A stretch of DNA of 64,000 nucleotides from Candidatus Omnitrophota bacterium (GTDB lineage: Bacteria > Omnitrophota > Gorgyraeia > Gorgyraeales > Gorgyraeaceae): positions 136,677-200,676 of the forward strand of contig JBDRJN010000003.1 in the NCBI GenBank assembly GCA_043814965.1, in the 5' to 3' direction. Positions 63 through 26,918 of this stretch are shown piece by piece (the stretch's first letter is position 1; each line of letters starts with the position of its first letter). Under the pieces are notes generated by a model. The model was not told the origin of the DNA. It did not search any database and saw only the letters and a list, made by a program, of their open reading frames with translations. Position numbers and translations under genes: made by a program.

Positions 63-932
63 TTAGTTTTCGAGTGACGATCTTGCAAAGGGCTTTGATA
101 TTACATCCTTAAAGCCTATGTCTTTTGCCATCACCGCAAATTCATCAAATTCTTCTGGGGCTAAAAATCTCTTTACCTCTACTGAATCAGATCTTGGCCT
201 TAGGTATTGGCCTATTACTATAATATCACACCCTGAAGCCTTGAGATCCCTCATCGTGTTATATATCTCTTCTTTGTCCTCGCCTAGTCCTGCCATCAAG
301 CCGCTCTTAGTAGTAATAAAAGGGCTTGTTGACTTAGCTTGTTTAATAACGCCCAAGGACCTGTCGTAATCAGCTTCTTTCCGTATGTCGCCATACAGCC
401 TGGGCACTGTCTCAATATTGTGAGAAAATACATTAGGCCCGGCAAGGACTACTTTTTCTATAGACTCCCTATTTCCTCCAAAATCTGGCACCAGCACTTC
501 TATATGCAATAGACTCTCAAACCCTCTTAATATCTCTACGGCCTTGGCAAAATGTTTTGCGCCCCCATCTTCTAGATCGTCTCTTGTGACAGAAGTTATG
601 GTAACTCTCTTAGCGCCCATTCTCCTGACAGCCTCCTTTATATTTAAGAGTTCTGTCGGATCTGGCCTTTCTAGGCCTACCTTTTTTGTATCTATCGCGC
701 AAAATGCGCAATTCCTTGTGCAGAATTTTCCCAATATAAGAAAAGTGCACTTCTTCTTCGAAAAACATTCATGTATGTTGGGGCATCTCGCGCTTTGACA
801 GACAGTATTTAACTCCAAGTCTTTCAACAGCATGCTAGTCTCTTTTATGGATATATTATTTTTTACTGACTGCCTTATCCAACAGGGAAATCTCTTCGAA
901 TGAGGCAATGGCTTTAGCTTTAGCATCCTCAA
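63..932 (-). CDS. lipA: Lipoyl synthase
   Basis: Radical-SAM motif CAFC within CTRNCAFC and N-terminal cluster CPNIHEC. LipA-like N-terminus. Overlaps lipB by 77 bp; an alternative start at M34 (about 833) would remove the overlap. Confidence 0.85.
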   Translation of the reverse strand: MRMLKLKPLPHSKRFPCWIRQSVKNNISIKETSMLLKDLELNTVCQSARCPNIHECFSKKKCTFLILGKFCTRNCAFCAIDTKKVGLERPDPTELLNIKEAVRRMGAKRVTITSVTRDDLEDGGAKHFAKAVEILRGFESLLHIEVLVPDFGGNRESIEKVVLAGPNVFSHNIETVPRLYGDIRKEADYDRSLGVIKQAKSTSPFITTKSGLMAGLGEDKEEIYNTMRDLKASGCDIIVIGQYLRPRSDSVEVKRFLAPEEFDEFAVMAKDIGFKDVISKPFARSSLEN

Positions 933-5312: not shown

Positions 5313-5392
5313 TACATCTCAAAAGTTAGCAAAAGATACCTTATCAAACAGGCTTGAATTATTGTTCGGACAGCCTATAAAAATAAATAGTC

Positions 5393-9684: not shown

Positions 9685-10940
9685 TGGGTGACCTCTCCTA
9701 CAAGGTCATATTCATATGTATCTATTATACGGGCATTATAGAATTTTCCAATATTTAATTTTTTATTTTTACTTTTTATATACACCAGGCCATCTACCTC
9801 TGGGGCGTCGTATTCGGTCCTACCTATAAAATCACCGTTAGACTCTTCCTCTACCAATACCTTTAAGACCTTTCCCTTAAGACCTTCATTGATGGTCTTT
9901 GATATAGCCTGCTGAGTGGCCATAGCCTCCTTAAAACGCTCTTCTTTTATATCCTCAGGCACTTGGCCTTTAAAACTATAAGCAGGGGTACTCTCTTCCC
10001 TGGAATATTTAAAAAGTCCGAGCCTTTCAAATCTTATATCTTCTATAAAATCCATCAGCTCTTCAAAATCTTTATCAGTCTCCCCGGGAAAACCAACTAT
10101 AAGAGATGTCCTAAGCGCTGATCCAGGTATCTTGGTACGTATATGATCTATCAAGGAAAGAATATCTTTTTTAGTGGTCTTACGGCCCATACCCTTAAGG
10201 ATCTTACTTGAGACATGTTCTATTGGAAGGTCTATATATCTACAGATATGATGGGAATCTTTTATAATATCTATGGTATCTTTATCAAGATTCTTGGGAT
10301 GGCAGTATAAAAGCCTTATCCAGTTATTATCTGACATGGAATCCAGCTTTTTAAGAAGCTCTCCCAGCCTTCTTTTCTTATACATATCCGTACCATATAA
10401 GGATGTATCCTGCCCTACTAAGACTATCTCTTTTATTCCATTTTTAATAGACGCTTCAGCTTCCTTGATGATATTATCCATAGGTTTACTTTTGTATGGG
10501 CCTTTTAGATAAGGGATAATGCAATATGTACACCTATTGAGGCAACCCTCTGAGATCTTGAGATATGCATAATAGCTGGGGGTCAAGAGTCTTTCTGGAG
10601 GGTCATTAAAAGTAGATTTAAAATCCAGCACTCCCCTAAATTCATCTACTTCCTTAAGTTCTTTCTTGAGCTCTTTCTGGTATCTCTCGCTCAAGCATCC
10701 GGCGACGATGATCCTCTTGATATCGCCTGACTTTTTGGCGTCAATGACCTTTAGGATAGTATCTATGGATTCCTTTTTGGCATCCTCTATAAAACTACAT
10801 GTATTTATGACCACAGTATCGGATCCTAGGGATTCATCCTTAAACACATAACCCTTTTTTTTGAATTCACCGGCTATATGCTCTGAATCCACCAGGTTTC
10901 TGGGGCACCCCAAGCTAATAATACTAAAAGTTTTCTTCAT
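9681..10940 (-). CDS. rimO: Radical-SAM methylthiotransferase of the MiaB/RimO family (probably ribosomal protein S12 methylthiotransferase RimO)
   Basis: N-terminal MTTase domain SLGCPRNLVDSE, radical-SAM CLNRCTYCIIP and a C-terminal TRAM-like domain. 419 aa. Confidence 0.65.
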   Translation of the reverse strand: MKKTFSIISLGCPRNLVDSEHIAGEFKKKGYVFKDESLGSDTVVINTCSFIEDAKKESIDTILKVIDAKKSGDIKRIIVAGCLSERYQKELKKELKEVDEFRGVLDFKSTFNDPPERLLTPSYYAYLKISEGCLNRCTYCIIPYLKGPYKSKPMDNIIKEAEASIKNGIKEIVLVGQDTSLYGTDMYKKRRLGELLKKLDSMSDNNWIRLLYCHPKNLDKDTIDIIKDSHHICRYIDLPIEHVSSKILKGMGRKTTKKDILSLIDHIRTKIPGSALRTSLIVGFPGETDKDFEELMDFIEDIRFERLGLFKYSREESTPAYSFKGQVPEDIKEERFKEAMATQQAISKTINEGLKGKVLKVLVEEESNGDFIGRTEYDAPEVDGLVYIKSKNKKLNIGKFYNARIIDTYEYDLVGEVTQ

Positions 10941-10944
10941 AATA

Positions 10945-10972
10945 GAATAAAAAATAGGGGCGATCGCCCCTT
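10945..10972 (-). terminator. Rho-independent terminator (GGGGCGATCGCCCC hairpin plus U-tract) after the RodZ-like gene
   Basis: Perfect 14-bp palindrome at 10957-10970. The minus strand has a UAUUUUUUAUU tract immediately after it. Confidence 0.55.
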
Positions 10973-14903: not shown

Positions 14904-16976
14904 TTATTCCTGAGCTTGCTTCATGCTAAGGTTGAGCCTGCCCATCTCATCTATCTTTACCAGCTTTACCTTAACCTTATCTCCGACCTTGACAACATCC
15001 TCTACATTCTTTACAAAACCATTCTTTAATTCAGAGACATGCACCAGGCCTTCTCTGCCTGGAAATATCTCACAAAACGCCCCAAAATTCATTATACGGG
15101 TAATAGTGCCATCAAAGATCGTGCCGGGCTCAAGTTCTCCTGCAATACCCTTGACTGCTTCAACAGCCCTTCTGATAGCTTCTTCTTTGTCAGACGAGAT
15201 AGCTACTTTACCATCATCGTCCACTTCGATAGTCGCGCCTGTCTCCTTGATGATCTTTTTTATTATCTTGCCTCCAGGGCCTATAAGATCCCTTATCTTA
15301 TCTTTATCGATCATGAGAGTAATGATCTTTGGCGCATAAGCTGAAAGGTCTTTTCTGGGCTTGTCTATAGCCTCTGCCATCTTATCAAGGATAAATTTCC
15401 TCGCAGGCTTAGTATGCTCCATTATCTCTTTTATCAGATCAATAGAGATACCATCTATCTTCAGGTCCATCTGAAGCGCAGTAAGCCCATCCTCTGTGCC
15501 AGCTGCTTTAAAATCCATATCCCCGAAATGGTCCTCTGAACCTGCTATATCTGTCAGTATCGCGTATTTATCTTTTTCCTTTACCAAGCCCATTGCAATA
15601 CCTGATACAGGTTTTTTGATAGGCACCCCTGCATCCATAAGTGAAAGTGTACTTGCGCACACTGTTGCCATAGAGCTAGAACCATTGGACTCCAGTATCT
15701 CTGATACGATCCTTATGGTATACGGGAACTCTTCGGATTGAGGTATGACTGCCTTTAAAGCCTTTTCAGCTAATGCGCCATGCCCTATCTCACGCCTTCC
15801 AGGGCCTCTGGCAGGGCCTACCTCTCCCACGCTAAAAGCTGGAAAATTATAATGCAGCATGAAGGTCTTGAATCTTTCACCTTCGAGCGCATCCAATCTC
15901 TGCTCATCCTGGCTTGTGCCAAGAGTTGTTGTAGACAGGCTCTGCGTCTCGCCTCTTGTAAATAAACCCGAACCATGGGTCCTGGGCAGTACCCCTACTT
16001 CACAAGCAATAGGCCTTATCTCGGTGTAAGGCCTGCCGTCTGTCCTCTTCGAGTTGCCCAATATGTATTTTCGGATCTCTTCTTTCTCTACCTTATATAA
16101 AGCGTTCTTAATATCTATGTCTTCGAGTGTTTCATCTTCTTTTTTTAATTTTTCCATGACCTCTTTGCCAAGAGCTATCCTCTCCTCGGTCCTTTTTTCT
16201 TTTGTAGGCAATGCGCTGATCTTCTGGATCTCTTTTGCAGCAATATGCTTTACCTTTTCATAGAGTTCTTTTTTGACTGTCTTTAGTTCTGGTTTGAGTT
16301 TTTCCCTGCCGCATTTTTTCTGAAGCTCTTCCTGCAATGCTATAGTATCAGCAATATGCTTTTGGGCAAATTCTATTGCTTCAAGCATCTTTTCTTCAGA
16401 TATCTCATTAGCCCCTGCCTCGATCATGACTACTTTATCTTTTGTACCTACCATGACCAGATTGAGTTCGCTTTTTTCCAGTTCCTGGAAAGTAGGGTTC
16501 ACTATAAATTCATTATCTATAAGCCCTATCTTTACAGCTCCTATCGGGCCTAAGAACGGTATATCTGATATTGTCAACGCTGCTGATGCCCCGACCAAGG
16601 CTGGTATATCAGAGTCATTTGCCCCATCGCTTGACAGCACTGTAGCGAACACCTGCACATCATTTGTATACCCGTCAGGGAAAAGCGGCCTTATGGGCCT
16701 GTCTATGAGGCGGGCAGTAAGTATCTCTTTTTCTGTGGGACGGCCTTCTCTCTTAAAGTAACCTCCAGGGATCCTGCCTGCCGCGTATGTCTTTTCCTTG
16801 TACTCGACTATCAGAGGAAAAAAATCTATCCCCTCCTTGGCCTCTTTTGAACATACTGCTGTCACCAGCACCACGGTCCCGCCATACTGCACGCACACTG
16901 CGCCATTAGCCTGTTTTGCAAGCTTGCCTGTTTCTATTATTAAATTCTCTCTTCCTATTCCTTTTTCAACTTTCAT
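14904..16976 (-). CDS. pnp: Polyribonucleotide nucleotidyltransferase (PNPase)
   Basis: 690 aa with two RNase PH domains and C-terminal KH and S1 domains (FGAFCEIFPGREGLVHVSEL). Confidence 0.92.
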   Translation of the reverse strand: MKVEKGIGRENLIIETGKLAKQANGAVCVQYGGTVVLVTAVCSKEAKEGIDFFPLIVEYKEKTYAAGRIPGGYFKREGRPTEKEILTARLIDRPIRPLFPDGYTNDVQVFATVLSSDGANDSDIPALVGASAALTISDIPFLGPIGAVKIGLIDNEFIVNPTFQELEKSELNLVMVGTKDKVVMIEAGANEISEEKMLEAIEFAQKHIADTIALQEELQKKCGREKLKPELKTVKKELYEKVKHIAAKEIQKISALPTKEKRTEERIALGKEVMEKLKKEDETLEDIDIKNALYKVEKEEIRKYILGNSKRTDGRPYTEIRPIACEVGVLPRTHGSGLFTRGETQSLSTTTLGTSQDEQRLDALEGERFKTFMLHYNFPAFSVGEVGPARGPGRREIGHGALAEKALKAVIPQSEEFPYTIRIVSEILESNGSSSMATVCASTLSLMDAGVPIKKPVSGIAMGLVKEKDKYAILTDIAGSEDHFGDMDFKAAGTEDGLTALQMDLKIDGISIDLIKEIMEHTKPARKFILDKMAEAIDKPRKDLSAYAPKIITLMIDKDKIRDLIGPGGKIIKKIIKETGATIEVDDDGKVAISSDKEEAIRRAVEAVKGIAGELEPGTIFDGTITRIMNFGAFCEIFPGREGLVHVSELKNGFVKNVEDVVKVGDKVKVKLVKIDEMGRLNLSMKQAQE

Positions 16977-17003
16977 AACGACTCCTTTTAGATTGCTTTA
17001 TAG

Positions 17004-17077
17004 TAAAAAAAGCGGATCTTAAAGACTTTCTTCGTGAGCGATTTAAATCCAAAAAAAGTCCTTAAAAAAATCCGCTT
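17004..17077 (-). terminator. rpsO terminator / pnp leader: long hairpin (8-bp stem AAGCGGAU/AUCCGCUU enclosing about 52 nt) followed by a U-run of 7 or more
   Basis: Inverted repeats at 17010-17017 and 17070-17077. The minus-strand U-tract follows at 17004-17009. Position matches the classic rpsO-pnp RNase III/attenuator hairpin. Confidence 0.5.
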
Positions 17078-17079
17078 CT

Positions 17080-17349
17080 TTACTTCTTTAGATTTAGTTT
17101 TTCTATGAGATCCCTGTATTTACTGACATCTTCTCTTTTTAAATATTCCAAGAGCCTTTTTCTCTGGCTTACCAAGCGCAATAACCCTACCCTTGAAGCA
17201 AAATCTTTTCTATGGACCTTAAAGTGTTCTGTAAGGCCGTTGATCCTGTCCGTAAGCAGCGCTACCTGGACACTGCATGAACCCGTGTCCTTTTCATGCT
17301 GAGAAAAATCTCTGATGATCTCTGACTTTTGTCTTATTTGTAGTACCAT
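17080..17349 (-). CDS. rpsO: 30S ribosomal protein S15
   Basis: [27 protein letters not shown]...[15 protein letters not shown] is S15. The track ORF starts at a GTG at 17361, but GGAGGAG sits 5 nt before the ATG at 17349, giving the canonical 89-aa S15. Confidence 0.88.
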
Positions 17350-17369
17350 TTTCTCCTCCACAATGCAAA

Positions 17370-17398
17370 ATTATACTATTTATAACACGCTACGTCAA
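17370..17398 (-). promoter_or_regulatory. Consensus sigma70-type promoter for rpsO: TTGACG, 17-nt spacer, TATAAT
   Basis: Minus strand reads TTGACGtagcgtgttataaatagTATAAT. The -10 lies at 17370-17375 and the -35 at 17393-17398. Confidence 0.6.
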
Positions 17399-17430
17399 GC
17401 ATTTCTTTATATTATTATACAACCCTAATC

Positions 17431-17487
17431 GTAGGGGAGCCTTACCTGTCCTCCGTAGCTTTAGCGGAGGAGGAAGGCTCCCCTACC
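17431..17487. repeat. Palindromic element copy 2 (GTAGGGGAGCCTT...AAGGCTCCCCTAC with a 31-bp internal insert); overlaps the 3' end and stop of the GT2 gene
   Basis: Same arms as the other copies. The GT2 reading frame terminates inside it. Confidence 0.7.
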
Positions 17488-18449
17488 ACTCCCTTAAACA
17501 TTACATTTTTTATATTAACATAAGCCATATAGGTCATAAGTAAAATATCATAGCTCAATATAAAAGGAGAGTTTATTAAATAATTTTTAAAAGTATCGTT
17601 TTTCCTCATACATAAGTAGCGGTTCTTGATATATTCTTCTTTTAGTTCATCCGATAAGTAGGGGAGGCTTAAGCCTCCCCTACGATCTTTATCAGCTCCT
17701 CTAACCGCTGTCCCGCCACGTCTATGATACGCTACAGCCTTAGGAGTGTAATATGCTTTCCATCCTGCCCTGGCTGCTCTCCAGGATACATCAAGGTCTT
17801 CGTAGTACATCCTGAACCTTCTGTCAAAATATCCGTATTGGTCCTTTATATCCTCAAGCATACTTTTTCTATAAAATGCGCACGCCCCGCTCACGCCAAA
17901 TATATATTCTTCTTTATCATACTGCCCCGTACCCCGTAACCCGTAACCCGTAACCCTTTTCCCGTATCCCCTCTCGACAGGCTTTCTATTTCTTCCCAGC
18001 ATTAGTCCAGTTGAATCGATTGTGGACTTATCTTCCCGCAAGATCTTCCCTGACACCATACCGATGCTATCATCCTTACCTATTGCGCACGAAACTTCCT
18101 TTAAATAATCTTTATCCAGATATACATCATTATTGATGCAAAGTATGAATTTTCCCGAAGATCTTTTTATGCCTTCGTTATATGCTTTAGAAAAAAATAA
18201 GTTAGTTGTATTTTGAATAAGCTTTGCTTCAGGGAAATGCGTCCGCACCATCTCTACACTATTATCAGTGGAGGCATTATCTACTACAATTAATTCTATT
18301 TGTTTACCCGCATTGTTCTGTTTATCCGCATTACTCTGTTTATCCGTATTGTAGGGGAGGCTTAAGCCTCCCCTACAAGCTTTTACAGATTCCAGGCATC
18401 GCTTCAATAGATCCGCTTTATTATAATTTACAACTATTACTGATATCAT
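17442..18449 (-). CDS. Family 2 glycosyltransferase with three palindromic element copies and two tandem-repeat tracts in its reading frame
   Basis: GT2 N-terminus VIVVNYNKADLLKRCLESV...IELIVVDNASTDNS and C-terminal YHRRGGTA core. RGGLSLPY, the translated palindrome, occurs twice in the protein. Confidence 0.7.
   Translation of the reverse strand: MISVIVVNYNKADLLKRCLESVKACRGGLSLPYNTDKQSNADKQNNAGKQIELIVVDNASTDNSVEMVRTHFPEAKLIQNTTNLFFSKAYNEGIKRSSGKFILCINNDVYLDKDYLKEVSCAIGKDDSIGMVSGKILREDKSTIDSTGLMLGRNRKPVERGYGKRVTGYGLRGTGQYDKEEYIFGVSGACAFYRKSMLEDIKDQYGYFDRRFRMYYEDLDVSWRAARAGWKAYYTPKAVAYHRRGGTAVRGADKDRRGGLSLPYLSDELKEEYIKNRYLCMRKNDTFKNYLINSPFILSYDILLMTYMAYVNIKNVMFKGVVGEPSSSAKATEDR
17658..17683. 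repeat. Palindromic element copy 3 (GTAGGGGAGGCTTAAGCCTCCCCTAC), in frame inside the GT2 coding sequence
   Basis: Perfect 26-bp palindrome, translated as RRGGLSLPY. Confidence 0.75.
17925..17959. repeat. Heptanucleotide tandem repeat, about 5 copies of (C/A)CCCGTA, inside the GT2 coding sequence
   Basis: ccccgta ccccgta acccgta acccgta acccgta read directly. Encodes GYGKRVTGYGLRGTG. Confidence 0.8.
18299..18351. repeat. Three imperfect tandem copies of an 18-bp unit (TCTGTTTAYCCGYATTRY) inside the GT2 coding sequence
   Basis: Encodes the hexapeptide repeats NTDKQS, NADKQN and NAGKQ near the N-terminus of the GT2. Confidence 0.7.
18351..18376. repeat. Palindromic element copy 4 (GTAGGGGAGGCTTAAGCCTCCCCTAC), in frame in the GT2 N-terminal region
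   Basis: Identical to copy 3. Translated as ACRGGLSLPY. Confidence 0.75.
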
Positions 18450-18481
18450 CTGTTGTGCCTTAATTTTTATACCTCATATAA

Positions 18482-18511
18482 ATGTAGGGCAGGTTTCAAC
18501 CTGCCCTACAT
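18482..18511. repeat. Palindromic element copy 5, variant ATGTAGGGCAGGTTtcAACCTGCCCTACAT, between the ABC exporter stop and the GT2 start
   Basis: Perfect palindrome with 14-bp arms. It is related to the other copies by a G-to-C change in the arm. It may double as a terminator for the ABC gene. Confidence 0.6.
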
Positions 18512-18531
18512 CACACAGTCCTTCAATAAAC

Positions 18532-20307
18532 CTATGTTAAAACCTTATCCTCTGTCTGATCTCTAAATAAATCCTGGAATTCTTTATTATTGCCAAGGAG
18601 TTCTTCTACATTGCCGATCACCATCTCTCCTGAACTATTCAAAAAATACACTAGCTCTGACCGTTTTACAGTAGATAAGCGGTGGGAGACGCTGATAAGC
18701 GTGATATCCTTAGCATATCCCCTGATATTCTCTATTATCCTATCTTCACTCAGGGAATCCATGGAAGCAAATGCCTCATCAAGTATTAAGATCTTTGGCT
18801 TTTTTATAAGCGCGCGCGCAATAGCTATCTTCTGCTTTTGTCCTTCTGATATCTTACATGCATTTTCACCGATTATTGTTTCATACTTATCATGCAGCTT
18901 TTCAGTAAACTCATCTACCAGGGCTATCTTAGCGCACTTTATAACATCTTCAAAGCTAGCCAGGTTATTTCCATAAAGGATATTATTTTTTATGCTATCA
19001 TTAAAGAGGTTCGGCTCCTGCAGCGCCATTCCAATACTATTTTTAAGCGAATTTAGGGACACATCCCTAATATTTTGCCCATCTATTATTATCTCGCCTC
19101 CATCGACCTCGTACAGCCTGGCGATCAGATTCAGGATCGTGGTCTTACCCTGCCCTGAAGGCCCAGCCAAGCTAATGTGCGTTCCCCCTTTTATCTTAAG
19201 ATCGAGGCCTTTTAAAATAAGTTGATCTTTCGAGTATCCAAAATTTACTTTTTTAAATTCTATCTCGCCTTTAGTTACAATAATATATTTTGCGTCTTCC
19301 CTGTCTGCTATCTCCTCTTTTTCATTCAAGATATTCTCTACTCTCTCACATGATACAAGGCCCAGGACAGTGCTTTGAAAAAACGATATAAAGCCGTATT
19401 GCATGTTCACTAGCTGGCCTAGATACACCAGGATCGCTGTGAGAGTGCCAAAGCTTATCTCACCTCTTATCACATGATAGCCTCCATAAAATGTAATAAG
19501 CCCTATTATGACCTTATCCAATACTTTGGCTGAAAACCCGCTAAAGATATCTAGTTTTGTACTGCTTTTTTCTAGCTCAATATTGTTTTTTAAGATGTTT
19601 AGGTATTTTTCTTTTTCATCTTTTTCCTTGCCAAATACCTTTATTAAATACGAGTGAGAAAAACTCTCCTGCAGGAATTTAAATATGCTTTGAGAGCACT
19701 CTATTAGCTTCTCCCAGATCGATCTACGTTTTTTGATAAAATAATACGGCCCTATATAAAGGAATGGCGCTAAAAAAAGTGAAAATAACGCTATCTTCCA
19801 GTTTAGCTTTAATATAATAATAAATATAAAAGCAATCCTAGGGAAAAGCATCACTGCCTTTGGGGGGATGCTTGTAATAAGCGTATTTACCCTATCTATA
19901 TCGCTGCTTATCTTATAGATATTTTCACCTGTTGATCTATCTCTAAACCATGCGAGAGACAACTTATTGATCTTACTAAACACCGCATTATTTAGGCTGT
20001 ATTTGACATCCAGGCTTACTTTTTTCTCTAGATATTCCTTGAGACCTTCTATCGCGCCAAGCGCAATAAATACCAATATCCCTAGGCTAGCAAGCAGCAC
20101 AAACTGCCTCAGGTCTTTTTTTATTATCCCTTCATCAACTATTAGTTTTGTTATATATGGATTTACTACGCTTAATAAGCTCCAGAAACTACCTAATAAG
20201 ATTATTAAAACCCACTTTGCCTTGTGAGGCAGGATAAGCCTTACAAATCTAAAAAAAAGCTGGGTCTGACTTTTTGCCTGATCAAGTTTTGGCTGGAATT
20301 TTCTCAT
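18532..20307 (-). CDS. ABC exporter with fused permease and ATPase (MsbA/type I exporter-like)
   Basis: Six predicted TM helices followed by Walker A LAGPSGQGKTT, signature LSEGQKQKIAIARAL and Walker B ILILDEAFASMD. No N-terminal C39 peptidase domain. 4-bp overlap with the AbiEii gene. Confidence 0.8.
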   Translation of the reverse strand: MRKFQPKLDQAKSQTQLFFRFVRLILPHKAKWVLIILLGSFWSLLSVVNPYITKLIVDEGIIKKDLRQFVLLASLGILVFIALGAIEGLKEYLEKKVSLDVKYSLNNAVFSKINKLSLAWFRDRSTGENIYKISSDIDRVNTLITSIPPKAVMLFPRIAFIFIIILKLNWKIALFSLFLAPFLYIGPYYFIKKRRSIWEKLIECSQSIFKFLQESFSHSYLIKVFGKEKDEKEKYLNILKNNIELEKSSTKLDIFSGFSAKVLDKVIIGLITFYGGYHVIRGEISFGTLTAILVYLGQLVNMQYGFISFFQSTVLGLVSCERVENILNEKEEIADREDAKYIIVTKGEIEFKKVNFGYSKDQLILKGLDLKIKGGTHISLAGPSGQGKTTILNLIARLYEVDGGEIIIDGQNIRDVSLNSLKNSIGMALQEPNLFNDSIKNNILYGNNLASFEDVIKCAKIALVDEFTEKLHDKYETIIGENACKISEGQKQKIAIARALIKKPKILILDEAFASMDSLSEDRIIENIRGYAKDITLISVSHRLSTVKRSELVYFLNSSGEMVIGNVEELLGNNKEFQDLFRDQTEDKVLT

Positions 20308-21077
20308 TTCATGCTTTTTATATACTCACAAAAATACAGCACCTTCTTTGAATCGCTTGGTTTAAATAAAAAAGGTTCTACATCTTTTGACAAGTGTTTA
20401 AAATCCAACTTTTTACATTTTAATAAAAGTTTCTCTTTTAACTCATCTATATCCTTAATGCCTGGCTTCGCTCTTAAATAATCAAAATTAGGCCTTGCCT
20501 TGCCAAAAAGATAAATGGCATCATAAAAATCCCTCCCCATTGCGCGCTTACGTTTAAGGATAGCATATATCTTTTGCGCCAGCAATATGTCAGGCGGCAC
20601 TATATTTATCCGCAAAAATACGTCAAATTTATTTATAATAACTTTGTCAGGGGCATAATCAAAATTCTGGGGTTCAGCATCTAGCTGGATTAGTATCTTT
20701 TCCTCTTTATGCCAGGATAATCCACTTTCAAAAAGTACATTCGGGATCCTTAAATAAGCCCTGTAAGCGCCTTTAAAAACATTCCTGGCCTCTGATATAT
20801 ATCCCTGTAAGGCCAATTGCCTTTTTACTAACCCTGCCAATCGCTCAAATTCTCTTTTATTTAGCCCTAGATTATCAAAATCCAAATCTTCTGAAAACCT
20901 TGTGTTTGAATGTATAATGCGTATAGCTGTCCCTCCCATAAAAGAGAGTTTCCCCCCAAATCTTGAATTAAAAATAATCTCGAGTATTTTATACTGCAGG
21001 TATTCGCGTAGTAAATTTCTCTTAAAAACCTTAAGATATTCAGGATAAAAAGACTCTATCTCTCTTATATCAAGCAT
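20304..21077 (-). CDS. AbiEii/AbiGii-family nucleotidyltransferase toxin (type IV toxin-antitoxin)
   Basis: LSFMGGTAIRIIHSNTRFSEDLDFD matches the DUF1814/AbiEii core. 8-bp overlap with the upstream antitoxin. Confidence 0.65.
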   Translation of the reverse strand: MLDIREIESFYPEYLKVFKRNLLREYLQYKILEIIFNSRFGGKLSFMGGTAIRIIHSNTRFSEDLDFDNLGLNKREFERLAGLVKRQLALQGYISEARNVFKGAYRAYLRIPNVLFESGLSWHKEEKILIQLDAEPQNFDYAPDKVIINKFDVFLRINIVPPDILLAQKIYAILKRKRAMGRDFYDAIYLFGKARPNFDYLRAKPGIKDIDELKEKLLLKCKKLDFKHLSKDVEPFLFKPSDSKKVLYFCEYIKSMK

Positions 21078-21687
21078 GGCTCATAAACCTCAAGAAAGAC
21101 TCTGATCTTTTTCTTAATGCCTTCTGATTAAACCTCTCAAGAAACATATATAGCTTTTCTTTGCTAAGCTGCTTAAAAAACATATCCTTATTTATGCGTA
21201 AACTCGCAAAACCATCTTCATCTTTTATGTTCGGATTAATATATAAATAATCCAAAATAGCCTTTTCCATGCTGGCAATCTTAAAATATTTATCCCCATA
21301 TTTTACCAAAATATACCCAAAAAAAAGCCTGGGCGTTACAGTCCTATATATAAATTCTGCTATCCGGGTCTTGAATCTATATGTCCTGCGGGTAGAAACA
21401 GCGGTAATTCCGTAGACGCTTTCAGGGATCAACTGGTAATAAGAAAGCGCCATCTCAAAAGAAATATATGAAGGAGGATATATCTTGTTGGAGATCTCGA
21501 AAAGCGCCTTTTCATTAAGCTTTAAATCAGAAAAGACATAATACCCCCTCACTACCTTTATAATATACCCCTTATCCTGCCATTCATTCAGCCTTGTGCG
21601 GAAAAAATTACCTTTAAGGGATTTAATGTCATTAAAGGAAAATATCGTGAAGTCCTTTAGGGCATTTCTTAATTCAAGATAGTGCAT
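21070..21687 (-). CDS. AbiEi-family antitoxin / transcriptional regulator
   Basis: 205 aa immediately upstream of and overlapping AbiEii. N-terminal winged-helix-like region (RTRLNEWQDKGYIIKVVRGYYVF). Confidence 0.55.
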   Translation of the reverse strand: MHYLELRNALKDFTIFSFNDIKSLKGNFFRTRLNEWQDKGYIIKVVRGYYVFSDLKLNEKALFEISNKIYPPSYISFEMALSYYQLIPESVYGITAVSTRRTYRFKTRIAEFIYRTVTPRLFFGYILVKYGDKYFKIASMEKAILDYLYINPNIKDEDGFASLRINKDMFFKQLSKEKLYMFLERFNQKALRKRSESFLRFMSHA

Positions 21688-21770: not shown

Positions 21771-22901
21771 TTAAACTTTTAACTTTTTCGCATCCTCCAG
21801 CATCTTCGCCCTCGCATGCGCCACTTCGCAGAAATAATCTATCGGCTTATCGAGCTCTCCACACTCAAGATGCGCATGAGCAGGACACCATAAACATAGG
21901 TTCACAATATTACAAACCTTACATTTCTCAAGAAATTCTTTCCTGTTTGAAGTCATTGCTCTTACGTTAGGTACAAAGTTCTCCCAAGCATCCCTAAGAG
22001 TCCCTTTTCTTAGATCATACATACATTTAGGATTGTGCAGAGATGAACAAAGCTTGAACATGCCTTCATAGCTGATATCAAAGTTACTATTACCTGCGCC
22101 GCAATAAAATATATTATTTCCATCAGAATGTGAATCTTTAGATAAAATAAGACTTGAACAGTTTTTCTCCAAAAACTGAAACCTCTTGGAGTCCTGACTT
22201 TCTACTATAATTATCTCATCAGGAGAAAGTCTTTCTAAAGATATTTCTTGATTCCTTTTTTTGTCAGAATCAAATCTCATGTGCAGAAAAGGATCAAAAC
22301 GAAAATAATCAGTAGTCCTTTCTCTACAAAAACTAGCTATTTGAGGTAACTCATCAACATTAGAGTGTAGTGCCATTGCTTTAAAACGTACTTTTATCTT
22401 ATTTTTAAGCAATATATCAAGTCCTTTCATAAATGCCTCGAAAGAACCAGGCTTTCTAGTAACCTTTTCATAGGTTTTTTTCGTAACACCATATACTGTC
22501 ACTTCCAGGTTTCTCGGAGGATATTTTTTAAATAAATCTATATGTCTGTCAGTTATCAACGTAGCATTAGTAAACACTGACACAAATAATCCCATTTTTT
22601 TAAGTAATATATAAACCTCAAAAAAATCCTCTCTCAATAATGGCTCACCGCCTGTTATAAGACACCATACAGCCCCCATATTCACTGCTTGAGTTGCTAT
22701 ATGTTCTATCTCGCTAATAGTTAATTCTTTCTTTTTTGCATCAGCATCATTTTTAGGTAGGTTTATATAGCAGTGTCTGCAATTATTATTACATCTTGCG
22801 GTAAGTTCTAGATTAAAAGAAATGATATTCATTCCTTCTTTCATCTTATCCCACATCTTAAAATCAGGTAATTTCTTACGCTTTACGAAAGGACTATCCA
22901 T
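21771..22901 (-). CDS. Radical SAM/SPASM-domain peptide-modifying enzyme (paralog A)
   Basis: CNNNCRHC CX3CX2C motif and GGEPLL. C-terminal Cys-rich SPASM region (CKVCNIVNLCLWCP...CGEL...YFCEVAHA). 8-bp overlap with the peptidase gene. Confidence 0.8.
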   Translation of the reverse strand: MDSPFVKRKKLPDFKMWDKMKEGMNIISFNLELTARCNNNCRHCYINLPKNDADAKKKELTISEIEHIATQAVNMGAVWCLITGGEPLLREDFFEVYILLKKMGLFVSVFTNATLITDRHIDLFKKYPPRNLEVTVYGVTKKTYEKVTRKPGSFEAFMKGLDILLKNKIKVRFKAMALHSNVDELPQIASFCRERTTDYFRFDPFLHMRFDSDKKRNQEISLERLSPDEIIIVESQDSKRFQFLEKNCSSLILSKDSHSDGNNIFYCGAGNSNFDISYEGMFKLCSSLHNPKCMYDLRKGTLRDAWENFVPNVRAMTSNRKEFLEKCKVCNIVNLCLWCPAHAHLECGELDKPIDYFCEVAHARAKMLEDAKKLKV

Positions 22902-23427
22902 TTAACACTACCTTCTTGATCCGATCTCTTATAAAAAGTGGTATCAATATTCTCCATAGATATATAAAAAGATTAATAAGCCTGGTCTTTGTTAAAAAAA
23001 AGATCAGAAAACGCGTTCTCCTGTTGCCAAAAAAAATATTCTTATTATTTCTTTCTATTTTTTCTACAAATGCCAGCATATCTTCTTTTTTAATTATGCC
23101 ATCTATCCATAACATACTATCGCCTTTTAAGACATAACAGTCTCTTTTTCTTCCTATTATTCTATGAACAGTAAGCCGCCTTGTAACAGGATGTATAAAA
23201 GCAGCCATATCTCCAAGACAAAAATCACCTTTGTCGTTTAATCGACAAAGTGTTATTGTATCCCCATCCATAATAAAAGGTGACATACTAAACCCCTTTG
23301 CCTTAAACCTAAATCCAGCGTTTTTGTTTAACGTTACTTTGAGTAACTCTATAAAAGCTGAGCTGTCAAAAACGATGTCCTGTCCTTCTTTTATAAAATA
23401 ACTAGCTTTATTTCTTTCGATTTTCAA
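22894..23427 (-). CDS. S26-family signal peptidase-like protein, probably ER/SipW-type S26B (candidate leader peptidase)
   Basis: GFSMSPFIMDGD (Ser box) and TVHRIIGRKRD (His in place of the box-D Lys, as in S26B). 177 aa. Translationally coupled within the operon. Confidence 0.5.
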   Translation of the reverse strand: MKIERNKASYFIKEGQDIVFDSSAFIELLKVTLNKNAGFRFKAKGFSMSPFIMDGDTITLCRLNDKGDFCLGDMAAFIHPVTRRLTVHRIIGRKRDCYVLKGDSMLWIDGIIKKEDMLAFVEKIERNNKNIFFGNRRTRFLIFFLTKTRLINLFIYLWRILIPLFIRDRIKKVVLNG

Positions 23428-23758
23428 TCACCATCTTTCTTTTTAAAAGCTCATTCGTCAATCCTAGCACATCTTCCTTGATCTCGTCTTTCCCTCCCTC
23501 AAACTTTTCAGCTAGCCGTCCTATGACTTCTTCAAGTGTACTCTTGCCATCAAGCTCATTCCATATGGCCCTACCAGTCTCATTCAGAGTAAATATCTCG
23601 TCCTCCATATCCCCTACTCCGGAAGTTATAGGGATTATTATAAATTCCCCTTGTATTTCGCGAGCCACCACAGCTTCCGATATCTTATAAGTTTTTTTAA
23701 TATCAAGCGCTGTTTTCATAAATCGTCTCCTTTTTTTAAAAAACCTTTTTATTGACAA
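23408..23758 (-). CDS. PqqD-family peptide chaperone (stand-alone RiPP recognition element)
   Basis: 116 aa. VVAREIQGEFIIIPI...FTLNETGRAIWNELDGKSTLEEVIGRLAEKFEG follows the PqqD pattern. Confidence 0.7.
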   Translation of the reverse strand: MSIKRFFKKRRRFMKTALDIKKTYKISEAVVAREIQGEFIIIPITSGVGDMEDEIFTLNETGRAIWNELDGKSTLEEVIGRLAEKFEGGKDEIKEDVLGLTNELLKRKMVIENRKK

Positions 23759-24935
23759 ACCTATCTATTCTTTTTTTCCAATCTTTAACTTCCCATGCAT
23801 TTTCGCTTTTTCCTATAAGACCTAGAAATCTAGCCTGAACATGGGCAATTTTACACAAGTATTCTACAGGAGTATCTAGAGTTCCATGCTCTGACCAGGA
23901 CTTCCCAGGACATTGTTCACATAGGCCTTTTAAAAAACACCTGGCACACCGAGACAGATATTCTGGATCTTTAGCTTTTATCTTTCTTATTTTTGGAAAA
24001 AAATTAATGACAGCATCTCTTAGGGAGCCTTTTTTGAGATCATAAACTAAGTCGGGATGCCTCACCAGCATACAAGGCTGAAAATTGCCATAACTATCCA
24101 CGCAACCGCTATCTTTTCCTGATCCGCAAGAAAAGATATACTCACCTGAAGGATGCATGAACTTTGAACAAAATTCCTGCATACTTTTGATATGGTTTTT
24201 TTGCTTTCCTTTGGAAATATCCAAACTTTCTTTAGGTACAACTCTAAGTTTTTTTATGATATCATTCTTTTTAGTATCATCTCTGCGAGACCTCAGGTCA
24301 AAAGATGCTGAATATGATGGCTTTTTTTTGTCCATCCATGGAATAGTACTAGTCCATTTTTCAAATTCTTCCATGTCTTTTTTATTGGTAGGTAAAAGCG
24401 TTCCTTTAACAATAAAAGGAATATTGTGTTTCAATAATAGGTCTATTCCCCTCTTAAAATCCTTAAAAGACCCTTTGATCCGTGTACAAGCTTCATAAGA
24501 AGACTCTTTCATACCATAGACGCTTACTTCTATTTTTTTTAATGGCGGAATATCATTAAAGAGCTCTGCTAAATGAGGGGTGATCAAGGTAGCATTTGTA
24601 AATAAGATGACCTTTAGCCCTAACTTTCTTGCGTATACATAAAGCTCTTCAAAATCCTCTCTTAAAAGCGGCTCCCCTCCTGTAAATCTTACAACCATAC
24701 AACCAAGCTCAACTGCTTCTTTTAATATGGTCTTTATCTTATCTGTCGAGAGCTCTCTTTTTTTAGCATCTCTGTCATCGATGGGTAGATTTATATAGCA
24801 ATGTATACAATTGCTATTACACCTTTCCGTAATTTCAATGTCAAGATGAGGCAGGGGAGAAGTTTTTATTCTCCAATAAAAATCCTTACCTATTATCTTC
24901 TTAGTAGCATAAGAAATATTCTTTTTCATTATCAC
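23736..24935 (-). CDS. Radical SAM/SPASM-domain peptide-modifying enzyme (paralog B, PqqE-like)
   Basis: CNSNCIHCYINLP and GGEPLLREDF. Closely similar to paralog A over the first 120 aa or so. C-terminal SPASM cysteines (CARCFLKGLCEQCPG...YLCKIAHV). Confidence 0.8.
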   Translation of the reverse strand: MIMKKNISYATKKIIGKDFYWRIKTSPLPHLDIEITERCNSNCIHCYINLPIDDRDAKKRELSTDKIKTILKEAVELGCMVVRFTGGEPLLREDFEELYVYARKLGLKVILFTNATLITPHLAELFNDIPPLKKIEVSVYGMKESSYEACTRIKGSFKDFKRGIDLLLKHNIPFIVKGTLLPTNKKDMEEFEKWTSTIPWMDKKKPSYSASFDLRSRRDDTKKNDIIKKLRVVPKESLDISKGKQKNHIKSMQEFCSKFMHPSGEYIFSCGSGKDSGCVDSYGNFQPCMLVRHPDLVYDLKKGSLRDAVINFFPKIRKIKAKDPEYLSRCARCFLKGLCEQCPGKSWSEHGTLDTPVEYLCKIAHVQARFLGLIGKSENAWEVKDWKKRIDRFVNKKVF

Positions 24936-24950
24936 TGTATATCAGCTGAA

Positions 24951-26918
24951 CTATATATCTTGTAATATGTTCAATATATTTCCGCTTTTGTCAAAATAAA
25001 GATTATAAAATGTACCTTCATCGGCCATTTTTTCGATAAACTGGAGGGATTTTTCCCACCACTCTACCGTAACGAATGGCTTTATTAAACGCGGAAGAAG
25101 CTTTCTGGTTATTTCTCTTTTATCATTGATCAATTCTATCTTATTTTCCTTTGATTTATTCAGAAAAAATACCCCTTTTAGTAGAGCCGAAGCATTAGAG
25201 ACTTCAGGTATCTCACCATGGCTCCATGTACCATACATCTTAAACCCTTCAGGCTGCTTCCTAACGATAATTCTATCATCGCAGAGTATTTTTGAGCTGC
25301 CTTTTAGCATTTTTATCATTGTGGATTTACCAGCTCCTGACACACCAACAAAAAGCAACCCCTTCCCTTCGAGTTCAACGCCACTTGCGTGCAAGACACA
25401 GCCCTCTCTATCTGCCAATAATCTTGCTAAAAATATTTGATCTGTTGGGAGAAGGCTGAGGGTTTGTAAACCTCCTTTAGAAAAATGCTTTCCTATGTTA
25501 CTATACACACTAATGCTGGTATGCTCATTATTGAATACTACTATCTTATGGATCTTTTTTTCTATATTATCCGGCAATATCCCCATATATATCCAGGAAA
25601 GGCCTTTCTTATATATTGCCCAAGGGAGTCTTTTATAATATAGCTCCCCTAAATCCTTTTCCTTAAGATCAGGTAATTTAAAATGATGTCTTATCTTAAC
25701 GATATCTTTCCCTGGTTTATTTACTTCAAATTGCTTAAACTTAGCGCTAAATGTCTTATTATTTATAGGCATATCTGAGTCTACTCGTATTGTTACATCT
25801 GCGATATTAAAATAGCGCCTGTTATTTTTCTTCCAATCTTCTTTAAGCTTCCTATTTTCTTTTGCCATATCACACAGATAGTCGATCTTTTTGCTAAATT
25901 TACGGTGCTCAAGATAACTATACACAGGACAGATAAGGCAATTGCTTTTCAAATCACACTTGCCGCAATTCCTTAAATAATCTTTCGTAACCTTTATCTT
26001 ATCTGCCAAAGATGGGATAAGCTCTTCCCAGACTTTTTTAAAACTGCTTTTTTTTAAACTATACCTAAGGCCAGGTTCTTTGACAAACGAGCAAAAACTC
26101 ATCCCACCATAAGGATCTATATGAAATTCTCTTCTATTCTTTATGCACGAAGAAAAAAGGTGTGTCTCTGGTTTTGGACAAAGACCAGTATTTCTATTAT
26201 CCTCGGTAGATAAATCTATTGTATCAAGCCTTGCTGCCTCTTTCGGCGAAAGACGCTGGTAAATTATCTCTTTATTGACTTTTTCATCACCGCTTGCTGA
26301 TAAAAAAAGCCAGGCTGCTCCTATCCTATAGTGTTTACTCAAAGACCGGGCCAATAGTTTCATTTTCTCAAATTCATGGTAATTATCTCTCATAGGGACA
26401 AGCTGTATCATAAAACCAGCTCTTGCCTCTTTTAGATATCTAATGCCTTGCATGGTAGCCTCAAAAGAACCTGGATTTCTCGTAATATGATCATGCACTT
26501 TGGCTGTAGCGCCATAAAGCGCTATCATCTTTGCTCCGATCCTTTTAAAAAGTCCTGCGATCTTTTTTGTAATAAGTGACCCATTAGTATTAATACTATA
26601 TGATCTTGAATTAGAGGTTATATAATCGAATATCTCTAAAAAATCAGGCCTTAGTATTGGTTCACCGCCTGATATAGACCATTTGTGACAACCCATAGTC
26701 TTTGCATCATCTACTATTTTTTTTATATCTTCCAAGGAAAGTTCATGTCTTTTGTCTTTAGAATCAGGCGATATCCTAAGCCAGCAATGTCTGCAATTAT
26801 TATTACAACGGTATGTCAAGTCAATAATCCCTTCAAAAGGAAGTCTCGGCATATTAAATGACCTTTTCATTAAAACATATCTATCCTGATGTCTATTAGA
26901 TTTTATAAGATTACTCAT
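24951..26918 (-). CDS. Fusion protein: N-terminal radical SAM/SPASM enzyme plus a C-terminal HPr-kinase-like P-loop domain
   Basis: CNNNCRHCW and GGEPIL. SPASM region CGKCDLKSNCLICP...YLCDMAKE. The C-terminal roughly 280 aa carry VLHASGVELEGKGLLFVGVSGAGKST...ILCDDRIIV, matching the HprK C-domain Walker A and LxxDD pattern. Confidence 0.75.
   Translation of the reverse strand: MSNLIKSNRHQDRYVLMKRSFNMPRLPFEGIIDLTYRCNNNCRHCWLRISPDSKDKRHELSLEDIKKIVDDAKTMGCHKWSISGGEPILRPDFLEIFDYITSNSRSYSINTNGSLITKKIAGLFKRIGAKMIALYGATAKVHDHITRNPGSFEATMQGIRYLKEARAGFMIQLVPMRDNYHEFEKMKLLARSLSKHYRIGAAWLFLSASGDEKVNKEIIYQRLSPKEAARLDTIDLSTEDNRNTGLCPKPETHLFSSCIKNRREFHIDPYGGMSFCSFVKEPGLRYSLKKSSFKKVWEELIPSLADKIKVTKDYLRNCGKCDLKSNCLICPVYSYLEHRKFSKKIDYLCDMAKENRKLKEDWKKNNRRYFNIADVTIRVDSDMPINNKTFSAKFKQFEVNKPGKDIVKIRHHFKLPDLKEKDLGELYYKRLPWAIYKKGLSWIYMGILPDNIEKKIHKIVVFNNEHTSISVYSNIGKHFSKGGLQTLSLLPTDQIFLARLLADREGCVLHASGVELEGKGLLFVGVSGAGKSTMIKMLKGSSKILCDDRIIVRKQPEGFKMYGTWSHGEIPEVSNASALLKGVFFLNKSKENKIELINDKREITRKLLPRLIKPFVTVEWWEKSLQFIEKMADEGTFYNLYFDKSGNILNILQDI

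Follow-up and report, generated by a model that had tools for sequence, protein, structure and literature searches.

The 64-kb window analysed here, the whole stretch of DNA taken from one Omnitrophota genome, carries five perfect palindromes of the pattern GTAGGG[G/C]AG…CT[C/G]CCCTAC in and around a gene for a family-2 glycosyltransferase (GT2), which is translated through some of them. We consider it probable that they belong to a dispersed repeat family of Omnitrophota, resembling the repetitive extragenic palindromes (REPs) of other bacteria, with copies tolerated in frame within genes; this judgement leaves aside how the family spreads. Three of its features appear to be new: it is fully symmetric (GTAG on both strands), it has arms that match DnaA boxes, and within one gene family a perfect palindrome has persisted at a single codon position. 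No published description of the family was found in the literature on Omnitrophica with 'palindromic', or on TTATCCACA or 'DnaA box' combined with repeat terms.

The palindromes and the features that overlap them lie in the window as follows.

12–47: copy 1, a 36-nucleotide (nt) perfect palindrome, TTAAGGTAGGGGAGCTTTAAAGCTCCCCTACCTTAA; intergenic, 16 nt downstream of the lipA stop codon (lipA open reading frame (ORF) 63–932, minus strand)
17431–17486: copy 2, composite, with a 30-nt insert between its 13-nt arms GTAGGGGAGCCTT / AAGGCTCCCCTAC; just upstream of the rpsO promoter
17449–17471: nested hairpin of a second family in the loop of copy 2, TCCTCCG-TAGCTTTAG-CGGAGGA with a 9-nt loop; translated SSAKATED
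17442–18449, minus strand: GT2 host gene, 335 amino acids, the sole long ORF across the region
17658–17683: copy 3, the 26-nt core GTAGGGGAGGCTTAAGCCTCCCCTAC; inside GT2, RGGLSLPY at amino acids 257–264
18301–18352: 18-nt tandem repeat, 2.9 copies, abutting copy 4; translated NTDKQSNADKQNNAGKQ
18349–18378: copy 4, a 30-nt perfect palindrome whose core (18351–18376) is the same 26-mer as copy 3; CRGGLSLPY at amino acids 25–33
18482–18511: copy 5, ATGTAGGGCAGGTT-TC-AACCTGCCCTACAT, 14-bp arms and a 2-nt loop; intergenic

All five palindromes described in an earlier note on this DNA are present, with the end of copy 2 at 17486, not 17487, and copies 1 and 5 lie where it had placed them, beyond lipA and between the ABC exporter and GT2. 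The core of copy 1, GTAGGGGAGCTTTAAAGCTCCCCTAC, spans 17–42 and is prolonged by a palindromic flank of 5 bp on each side. Copy 5, 20 nt past the ABC-exporter stop codon (18532) and 32 nt ahead of the GT2 start (18449), is a GGCAGG/CCTGCC variant in which the G-to-C change is compensated in the opposite arm. Predicted RNA folds reach −42.9 kcal/mol (z −6.2) for copy 2 and −24.4 kcal/mol (z −7.8) for copy 5. Searching the window for a 10-mer with at most one mismatch gave 16 matches, compared with 2.74 ± 1.45 in shuffled sequence, and none of 100 shuffles reached 16; the palindromes' own arms account for ten of the 16. A stretch of 1.1 kb out of the 64 kb holds four of the five copies, a clustering for which we estimate a probability of ~2e-5 under random placement. 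A TTAA target duplication had been suggested for copy 1; its flanks merely prolong the palindrome, no TTAA accompanies the other copies, and the pooled flanks have only a weak R-Y-N preference. No target-site duplication, TTAA or other, was found at the copies.

The same palindrome recurs well beyond the window. A scan of one genome per species found at least 17 Omnitrophota loci with perfect palindromes of 26–29 nt of the GTAGGG type; its permissive pattern (gap of 6–36 nt) gave chance hits from other phyla, and only the Omnitrophota hits and a few labelled Planctomycetia were used. Exact 26-mers are found in many metagenome-assembled genomes of Omnitrophota. The exact 26-mer pattern occurs in at least 120 metagenome contigs, with 130 copies there, each in a different context, whereas chance would yield about 0.004 matches (our own estimate, from the specificity of the motif and an assumed collection of ~1e12 bases). 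Single contigs of 12–15 kb from pooled assemblies hold up to four or five copies. No exact copy was found in viral contigs. Two loci labelled 'uncultured Planctomycetia/Planctomycetales', L018 (CAYIQH010000015.1) and L060, carry the exact Omnitrophota-type 26-mer; L018 matches the hisD–alaS region of the window at ~69% nucleotide identity, and these bins may be Omnitrophota-like or mis-binned.

Across these copies the core is a perfect palindrome of 24–29 bp, GTAGGG[G/C]AGG-(Y)TTTAA(R)-CCT[C/G]CCCTAC, with arms of 12–13 bp, and the arms are fully Watson–Crick paired in 171 of 181 copies. GTAG opens the core on both strands and is always paired with CTAC; among near-matches (at most four substitutions) three copies have GCAG and one, in ortholog P0003, has GTAA paired with TTAC, the retrieval patterns having had a fixed GTAG. 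In 100 of 130 copies the palindrome continues past the core into flanks that differ from locus to locus, and in 35 of the 130 the extension measures at least 4 bp, whereas with random flanks ~72% of copies would be expected to have no extension at all (our own estimate).

Of 155 copies that could be located, 119 (77%) are intergenic, 15 overlap the ends of ORFs and 21 (~14%) lie inside ORFs of at least 90 amino acids. The intergenic copies stand between co-directional genes, at a median of 25 nt from the upstream stop codon. Genes that read a copy in frame include those for RsmE, HlyD-like, KsgA, FolC, DUF1015, LpxL-like, NuoL/Mrp-like, MFS transporter and CODH/ACS-like proteins; locus L198 has one copy within KsgA and another just upstream of the likely KsgA start codon. 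The 26-nt form carries stop codons in two of the three frames on each strand (from GTAG and the central TAA), leaving RGGL[NS]LPY as its sole open reading, and the 29-nt form is open in another frame, which yields VGEG[LF]KPSPT. Because a copy inside a gene needs this single open frame and a length that is a multiple of three, the in-frame copies reflect a survivorship filter and are not evidence of targeting. The earlier proposal of a selfish element that tolerates or targets coding sequence is supported in so far as the family is dispersed and a minority of its copies are read in frame inside genes.

DnaA-box arms of the element

Some copies are larger than their core. The 9-mer TTATCCACA, the high-affinity DnaA-box consensus quoted as TT[AT]TNCACA (PMC6006769), lies 2 or 3 nt outside the core at 36 of 312 half-sites with at most one mismatch (32 of them perfect), where the background rate of these loci predicts ~0.12. 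One such arm or more is present in 27 of ~156 copies, and nine have both, inverted, in the layout (A)GTTATCCACA...TGTGGATAAC(T) around the core. The two-armed element forms a hairpin of ~54 nt with a 24-bp stem (−43.9 kcal/mol, z −12.5). The 26-bp core given in the earlier note falls short of the whole unit, which in some copies includes inverted DnaA-box arms. Armed copies occur in many unrelated intergenic contexts, not at a replication origin. No inverted pair of TTATCCACA boxes without a core was found in 1.75 Mb, and for want of such empty pairs we no longer consider that DnaA-box palindromes might be a separate family into which cores insert. The copies in the window have degenerate arms only, none of them with a perfect DnaA box. 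Such an arm (TTATCCGCA / TTATCCGTA) is carried by the units of the 18-nt tandem repeat, the last of which, TTATCCGTA, stands at the canonical 2-nt spacing from the core of copy 4.

These arms could mean that the full element, once extruded as single-stranded DNA, is a DnaA-recruiting hairpin of the A-site kind with a duplex DnaA box in the stem, serving its own second-strand synthesis after single-strand transposition or the host's helicase reloading or DnaA titration; alternatively, the boxes may be bound by a Y1 transposase with a helix-turn-helix like that of DnaA domain IV. The 9/9 match to the DnaA box, the fixed spacing, the excess of half-sites, the nine copies with both arms inverted and the fact that the boxes are never paired without a core all favour such a role, and hairpins whose stem contains a DnaA box are known to serve as a loading site for DnaA, DnaB and DnaC (PMC6127211). 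In a large subclass of Y1 transposases the C-terminal domain resembles Bac_DnaA_C (PMC6006769). On the other side, only ~12% of copies have arms and the window's copies have no perfect box, no DnaA-C-like domain was found in 1.75 Mb, the conserved Y1 protein of Omnitrophota has PF01797 alone, and the DnaA-box consensus used is assumed for Omnitrophota and may not be theirs. On balance, we think a DnaA-related role unlikely, though worth keeping in view.

Two in-frame copies of different age in GT2

The GT2 protein of the window is identical to an NCBI entry from a Candidatus Omnitrophota metagenome-assembled genome. GT2 has ~1,900 homologs, overwhelmingly from Omnitrophota, and sits in the conserved gene order ABC/Wzy–GT2–rpsO–pnp–uppP–ftsK. 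It is immediately upstream of rpsO in all seven ortholog loci retrieved with DNA; pnp, uppP and ftsK come next in L120, L121, L123 and L124, and the neighbour upstream of GT2 varies. Because the gene order is shared, these seven are true orthologs. The window GT2 retains all 64 invariant columns of an alignment of 27 sequences (the window protein and 26 orthologs) and is probably functional.

The gene reads copy 4 as C25-RGGLSLPY-33 and copy 3 as R256-RGGLSLPY-264 in an intact ORF, which bears out the double in-frame reading reported earlier. Copy 3 lies in the loop before the conserved DELK..Y-I-x-N-R helix. Copy 2 encodes the last 15 codons, with the tail VGEPSSSAKATEDR, followed by the TAA stop at 17442–17444; the copy thus ends the ORF, as had been claimed, but its arm gives only two of the three bases of the stop codon. 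The composite copy would have replaced the 3′ end of the GT2 ORF. In the closest ortholog (L120), sequence related to its nested hairpin stands in frame (PSYAKATEG) at a third GT2 site. Nesting of hairpin families, as in copy 2, also occurs in L087, where a 56-nt perfect palindrome (4514–4569) lies in a 677-amino-acid LpxL/ELM1-like ORF and the core GTAGGGCAGG is central in a second GC-rich palindrome (CCCTCTCCCCACCCT...AGGGTGGGGAGAGGG).

The two full copies inside GT2 differ in age. The N-terminal linker that holds copy 4 measures 9 amino acids in 67 of 68 scorable homologs and 30 in the window protein only, the additional 21 amino acids being the palindrome of copy 4 and the 2.9 copies of the 18-nt repeat. 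In a low-confidence AlphaFold model, residues 30–48 (predicted local distance difference test (pLDDT) below 50) lie between a confidently modelled helix (12–27) and strand (51–57); the insert is thereby tentatively assigned to the GT-A loop that joins helix 1 to strand 2, and it is disordered there. Only the N-terminal half of this model was usable (mean pLDDT 57), and the C-terminal site could not be placed structurally. The N- and C-terminal copies share the 26-mer and a flank, CGGAT[A/G]AAC, although the similarity of the flanks is modest; the N-terminal copy was probably copied locally from the C-terminal one. It would have arrived with one degenerate arm, which was afterwards tandemly triplicated. 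Of the in-frame insertions that the earlier note saw within GT2, the N-terminal copy is therefore borne out as an insertion (1 of 68 homologs), whereas the C-terminal copy is not recent.

Identical 26-mers at two sites of one gene could also act as a recombination switch, in which exchange between them deletes or inverts the 693-bp catalytic core and so phase-varies a surface-glycan enzyme. The repeats are both direct and inverted, they are 693 nt apart (a multiple of three) inside a cell-envelope glycosyltransferase, and the gene holds two more slippage-prone repeats, a heptamer (×4.4) and the 18-mer (×2.9). Against such a switch, homologous exchange would have only a short 26 bp to act on, the neighbourhood has no gene for a recombinase or invertase, and an N-terminal copy found in one of 68 homologs is not a conserved design; we regard it as very improbable. 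The heptanucleotide repeat, CCCGTAA ×4.4 at 17926–17956 (to 17970), is translated VTGYGLRGTG and adds seven amino acids (3 × 7 nt) where 107 of 109 homologs have a 14-amino-acid linker. It is seeded by the native GGT TAC GGG codons (G-Y-G), and the closest ortholog has two units and a hairpin insert there.

The C-terminal copy is, by the comparison of orthologs, old and inherited with the GT2 gene. Its loop has a modal length of 27 amino acids across 98 homologs, with short loops in three proteins; in P0006, the closest ortholog (67% identity), it has 16 amino acids, 11 fewer. Orthologs read GGLNLPY, GALRLPY or AGLNLPY at the site, and the DNA at that codon position comprises five perfect palindromes in five sequence variants, the window counted, and two decayed ones:

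P0018: C-terminal-site palindrome GTAGGGGAGCCTTAAGGCTCCCCTAC
P0017: C-terminal-site palindrome TAGGGGAGGTTTAAACCTCCCCTA
P0003: C-terminal site, 40-nt perfect palindrome CACAAATGTAAGGGAGCCTTAAGGCTCCCTTACATTTGTG
P0010: C-terminal site, 34-nt perfect palindrome AGATGTAGGGCAGGTTTAAACCTGCCCTACATCT
P0005 and P0007: C-terminal site, decayed palindromes

Both decayed copies look like descendants of the same insertion, and in a crude neighbour-joining tree the perfect-type peptides are interspersed among decayed ones. Between species the arms have changed in pairs, from G·C to A·T at positions 4/23, from G·C to C·G at 7/20 and from GG/CC to GC/GC at 10–11, and in two species the palindrome has grown into its flanks, altering one or two amino acids of the protein as it did so (Ser to Cys in P0003, for example).

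These data bear on whether the repeated peptide is ordinary conserved coding sequence, or an assembly artefact, with incidental palindromy. The loop of 27 amino acids is present in most homologs and its decayed versions hold G-x-N-[FL]-x-Y, as such sequence would. More than 100 independent assemblies, however, have the same 26-mer in unrelated genes and outside coding sequence, the ORFs are intact across the copies, and perfect palindromes of 24–40 nt with complementary double changes go beyond what selection on the protein alone would give. Orthologs with the peptide and without palindromic DNA had been named as the check on the GT2 reading; with five of seven sites perfect and two decayed, that reading survives, and we find the coding-sequence explanation scarcely credible.

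The C-terminal loop also retains a trace of the arms. In orthologs it reads AVIHKGRGGLNLPYLPDKLK, in which GTT ATC CAC AAA encodes VIHK, and an unrelated 150-amino-acid ORF reads the full armed element as KVIHSSRGGLNLPYNVDNLK. Since the loop matches the translated armed element, at least its left arm and core derive from an armed copy. The C-terminal copy would originally have borne at least that arm, giving ...VIHK-x-RGGLNLPY-xx-D-x-LK... in orthologs; in the window its arms are decayed. Other hairpins occur in the same orthologs. The C-terminal tail of P0018 contains a translated 57-nt hairpin (L122, 3537–3593) with 26-bp arms, each with CGAGGTTTAACCTCG. In P0007 a three-hairpin insert, RLKPAATEQGVAATFRLR, stands just upstream of the decayed core (L124, 4673–4728), and further orthologs have ...PKQSQERLLRFARNDR... 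inserts in the same loop.

Upkeep and turnover of the palindromes

We propose that perfect palindromy is upheld by correction, not by a need of the protein for the peptide. Resident copies may stay perfect through arm-to-arm correction (hairpin-templated repair or template switching) or through correction against other copies in the genome. Template switching that turns a quasi-palindrome into a palindrome is a known mutational route. The paired changes at the GT2 site fit hairpin-templated correction and, equally well, conversion by copies elsewhere in the genome. Among the mismatches of imperfect copies, few of which were sampled without bias, 3 of 13 are G:U-compatible; as there is no wobble excess, selection on an RNA helix is not indicated.

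Copies might instead be retained as RNA or DNA structures of use to the host, for instance as 3′-end hairpins that stabilize or terminate transcripts, the coding copies being incidental. Much of the placement agrees with this: intergenic copies follow stop codons closely between co-directional genes, in the window there are copies after lipA, after the ABC exporter and after GT2, where copy 2 stands between the gene and the conserved rpsO promoter. Fold stability is very high (z −6 to −12.5), and at the orthologous GT2 site the two arms co-vary. The hairpins have no U-tract after them, however, and the mismatches are mostly not G:U-compatible. A permissive Rfam search of 16900–18700 matched none of the palindromes; it gave a weak S15-leader hit and, on the rpsO–pnp hairpin, microRNA hits due to chance. 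A host structure would also leave the DnaA-box arms unexplained, and the closest syntenic relative has unrelated palindromes at equivalent positions, which points to selfish turnover rather than to one regulator. Host retention thus seems to us a minor contender, with the odds well against it.

That relative, L120 (~73% nucleotide identity), has no GTAGGG copies in 21 kb. None of the retrieved loci belongs to the window's own genome, the best match among them being 73–75% identical in nucleotides. Between its ABC exporter and GT2 stands an unrelated palindrome, AGACCCGGGGTCT, twice (9945–9995), and a tandem unit of ~50 nt with AGATCCSGGATCT forms the C-terminal tail of its GT2 and the 3′ flank (10845–10945). 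The genome of P0007 has a sub-family, GTAGGGGCGGGGT-N-ACCCCGCCCCTAC or (A)ATGTAGGGGCGGGGT-N-ACCCCGCCCCTAC, directly after the stop codons of pnp and uppP (L124, 7500–7532 and 8283–8315). Different GC-rich palindrome families fill the same niches by lineage, as expected of selfish repeats filtered by selection.

At its boldest, a reading of these sequences would have Omnitrophota carry a phylum-wide mobile hairpin, with two inverted perfect DnaA boxes around a GTAG-footed GC stem, that recruits DnaA or a Y1 transposase with DnaA domain IV to single-stranded hairpins. Its palindromes would be kept by arm-against-arm correction, even in essential genes and across speciation, and a permanent loop of the GT2 family would be an entire element (~18 codons) that the gene had acquired. 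We hold this combination to be speculative and doubtful.

Spread of the family and its relation to known repeats

How a REP-like family reaches new sites is a separate matter. It may spread as a single-stranded DNA hairpin handled in trans by an HUH/Y1 transposase of the REP-associated tyrosine transposase (RAYT) type, the likeliest of the routes considered, though at somewhat less than even odds. A mechanism of the MITE kind (that of miniature transposable elements with inverted repeats), with a DDE-type transposase, is in our view improbable, and we give similarly little credence to purely replicative template switching or gene conversion.

Several results weigh against the family being REP-like or against a RAYT-type route. 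No transposase is tied to the family: in the ~1.7 Mb searched, the Y1_Tnp genes (L153, L246–248 and L221) are flanked by other repeats (GTAGACAGTnTACGTAA; TCGACCGG...CGGTCGA) and not by GTAGGG cores, and when ~580 neighbouring proteins were clustered, no family, mobile-element gene or transposase recurred beside the cores. In the window, tblastn found no match to RayT of E. coli, to a TIRYT consensus or to domain IV of E. coli DnaA. In described REPs, GTAG is an unpaired foot (PMC3733652), whereas in the Omnitrophota element it is paired with CTAC, and DnaA-box arms, which some Omnitrophota copies have, are not a REP feature. Most copies were retrieved by an exact-match pattern, which biases the scarcity of decayed ones. 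For the copy in the GT2 loop, descent from the element is clear for the left arm only; its D-x-L-K side looks like the right arm but may be native. Finally, the remaining 45 kb of the window past 18511 have no copy.

Two Y1_Tnp genes were found among the retrieved loci, each tied to a different repeat. One encodes a RAYT-like protein of 228 amino acids that is conserved, single-copy and syntenic (S1–tyrS–Y1–brnT/brnA) in several Omnitrophota genomes:

L246: 9880–11885, conserved Y1_Tnp locus
L247: 9363–16165, conserved Y1_Tnp locus
L248: 4786–19195, conserved Y1_Tnp locus
L153: 641, conserved Y1_Tnp locus

It is bracketed by inverted GTAGACAGTnTACGTAA, a different GTAG repeat dispersed at 5–8 copies per 20 kb, and the unit looks like the REPtron of another GTAG family; tblastn with the Y1 protein of L153 gave no match in the window. 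The second gene, in L221, encodes 211 amino acids and is flanked by three palindromes of ~40 nt, TCGACCGGGkCGGTGGGACCGGGGCGGTCGA, at 4484–4646 and 5322–5360, in the manner of a REPtron or TIRtron. RAYT-type systems are thus present in Omnitrophota, and they may be linked to the GTAGGG family. A large Y1 subclass has a DnaA-C-like helix-turn-helix domain, with flanking repeats unlike DnaA boxes (Quentin et al., PMC6006769). The armed element would be a natural substrate for a Y1 protein with such a domain, none of which was found here.

Among known systems, the family compares most directly with GTAG REPs and REPINs and the RAYTs credited with moving them (Nunvar 2010; Bertels & Rainey 2011; Di Nocera et al. 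2013, PMC3733652; Quentin et al. 2018, PMC6006769). Like them, the Omnitrophota family consists of short, GC-rich hairpins, with complementary stem sub-families and occasional in-frame copies; pooled across assemblies its copies are numerous and lie mostly 3′ of ORFs and between co-directional genes, and GTAG at the foot of the hairpin may be a further likeness. REPs are GC-rich stem-loop palindromes of 20–40 bp, and the Omnitrophota cores measure 24–29 bp, nearly all with Watson–Crick arms and with z ≤ −6. They differ in their long stems (12–13 bp), in having essentially no loop and in that no cognate RAYT flanked by the same repeat was found in the ~1.7 Mb searched. GTAG-type REPs that lie in frame within genes, in some cases two to a gene, have been described from several phyla, among other hosts from Opitutus terrae, a relative within the Planctomycetes–Verrucomicrobia–Chlamydiae group, and from Rickettsia conorii (PMC3733652). 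The earlier remark that such elements are otherwise unusual outside Rickettsia and a few lineages was therefore overstated.

Palindromic elements of Rickettsia, as cited in PMC3733652 (Ogata et al. 2000), likewise sit in frame within functional genes, in surface loops, in an AT-rich genome. The Omnitrophota family differs in host phylum, in lifestyle and in being mostly intergenic; the likeness is one of behaviour, in the tolerance of in-frame copies. MITEs (Correia/NEMIS, Nezha and RUP) are also non-autonomous, and the AGTTATCCACA arms could be read as terminal inverted repeats, with co-transcription or read-through possible. MITEs usually measure 70–300 bp, whereas the Omnitrophota element has 26–54 bp and is most conserved at its centre, not its ends; it has no target-site duplication, and no insertion sequence with AGTTATCCACA ends was found in the retrieved sequence. 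RPE-1, one of the Rickettsia palindromic elements, is much longer than the element described here, at around 100–150 bp. GC clusters of yeast mitochondria and palindromes of algal and fungal organelles are GC-rich, invade AT-rich genomes, sometimes in frame, and nest, and are unrelated in sequence, with a different presumed spreading mechanism. The A-site of the ABC primosome, as summarized in PMC6127211 (Masai et al. 1990; Masai & Arai 1995), shares with the predicted fold of the full element a hairpin stem that holds a perfect duplex DnaA box; in that account it is a single plasmid or phage priming signal, whereas the Omnitrophota element is a dispersed chromosomal repeat.

Invasion of protein genes by in-frame palindromes, for which Rickettsia is the best-known case, would with this family extend to an uncultured phylum of free-living or episymbiotic bacteria. 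In GT2, one insertion appears to have persisted as a loop of the protein while the gene family diversified, with its DNA still a perfect palindrome, and the site offers a natural test case for palindrome maintenance, with arm-to-arm correction set against re-insertion. If functional, the association of core and DnaA box would link a REP-like repeat to the replication initiator and could supply the missing target of Y1 transposases with DnaA-like domains. The annotation of Omnitrophota proteins is affected too, since the repeats give rise to peptides that only seem conserved (RGGLNLPY, VGEGLKPSPT, VIHK...) and to C-termini that vary.

Some features of the neighbourhood complete the description. 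The rpsO promoter, TTGACG-17-TATAAT, is kept in the window and in L120, just downstream of copy 2 (feature region 17362–17425 of the window). The S15-leader match at 17293–17397 is weak and below threshold (20 bits against a gathering score of 39.5), and a long hairpin lies between rpsO and pnp (17002–17084). Beside the ABC exporter, at 20304–21687 and 21771–26918, we identified by eye an AbiEii/AbiEi-like toxin–antitoxin pair and radical-SAM genes with small ORFs, a peptide-maturation cluster; the corresponding place in L120 has radical SAM/SPASM, PqqD and ScmC genes.

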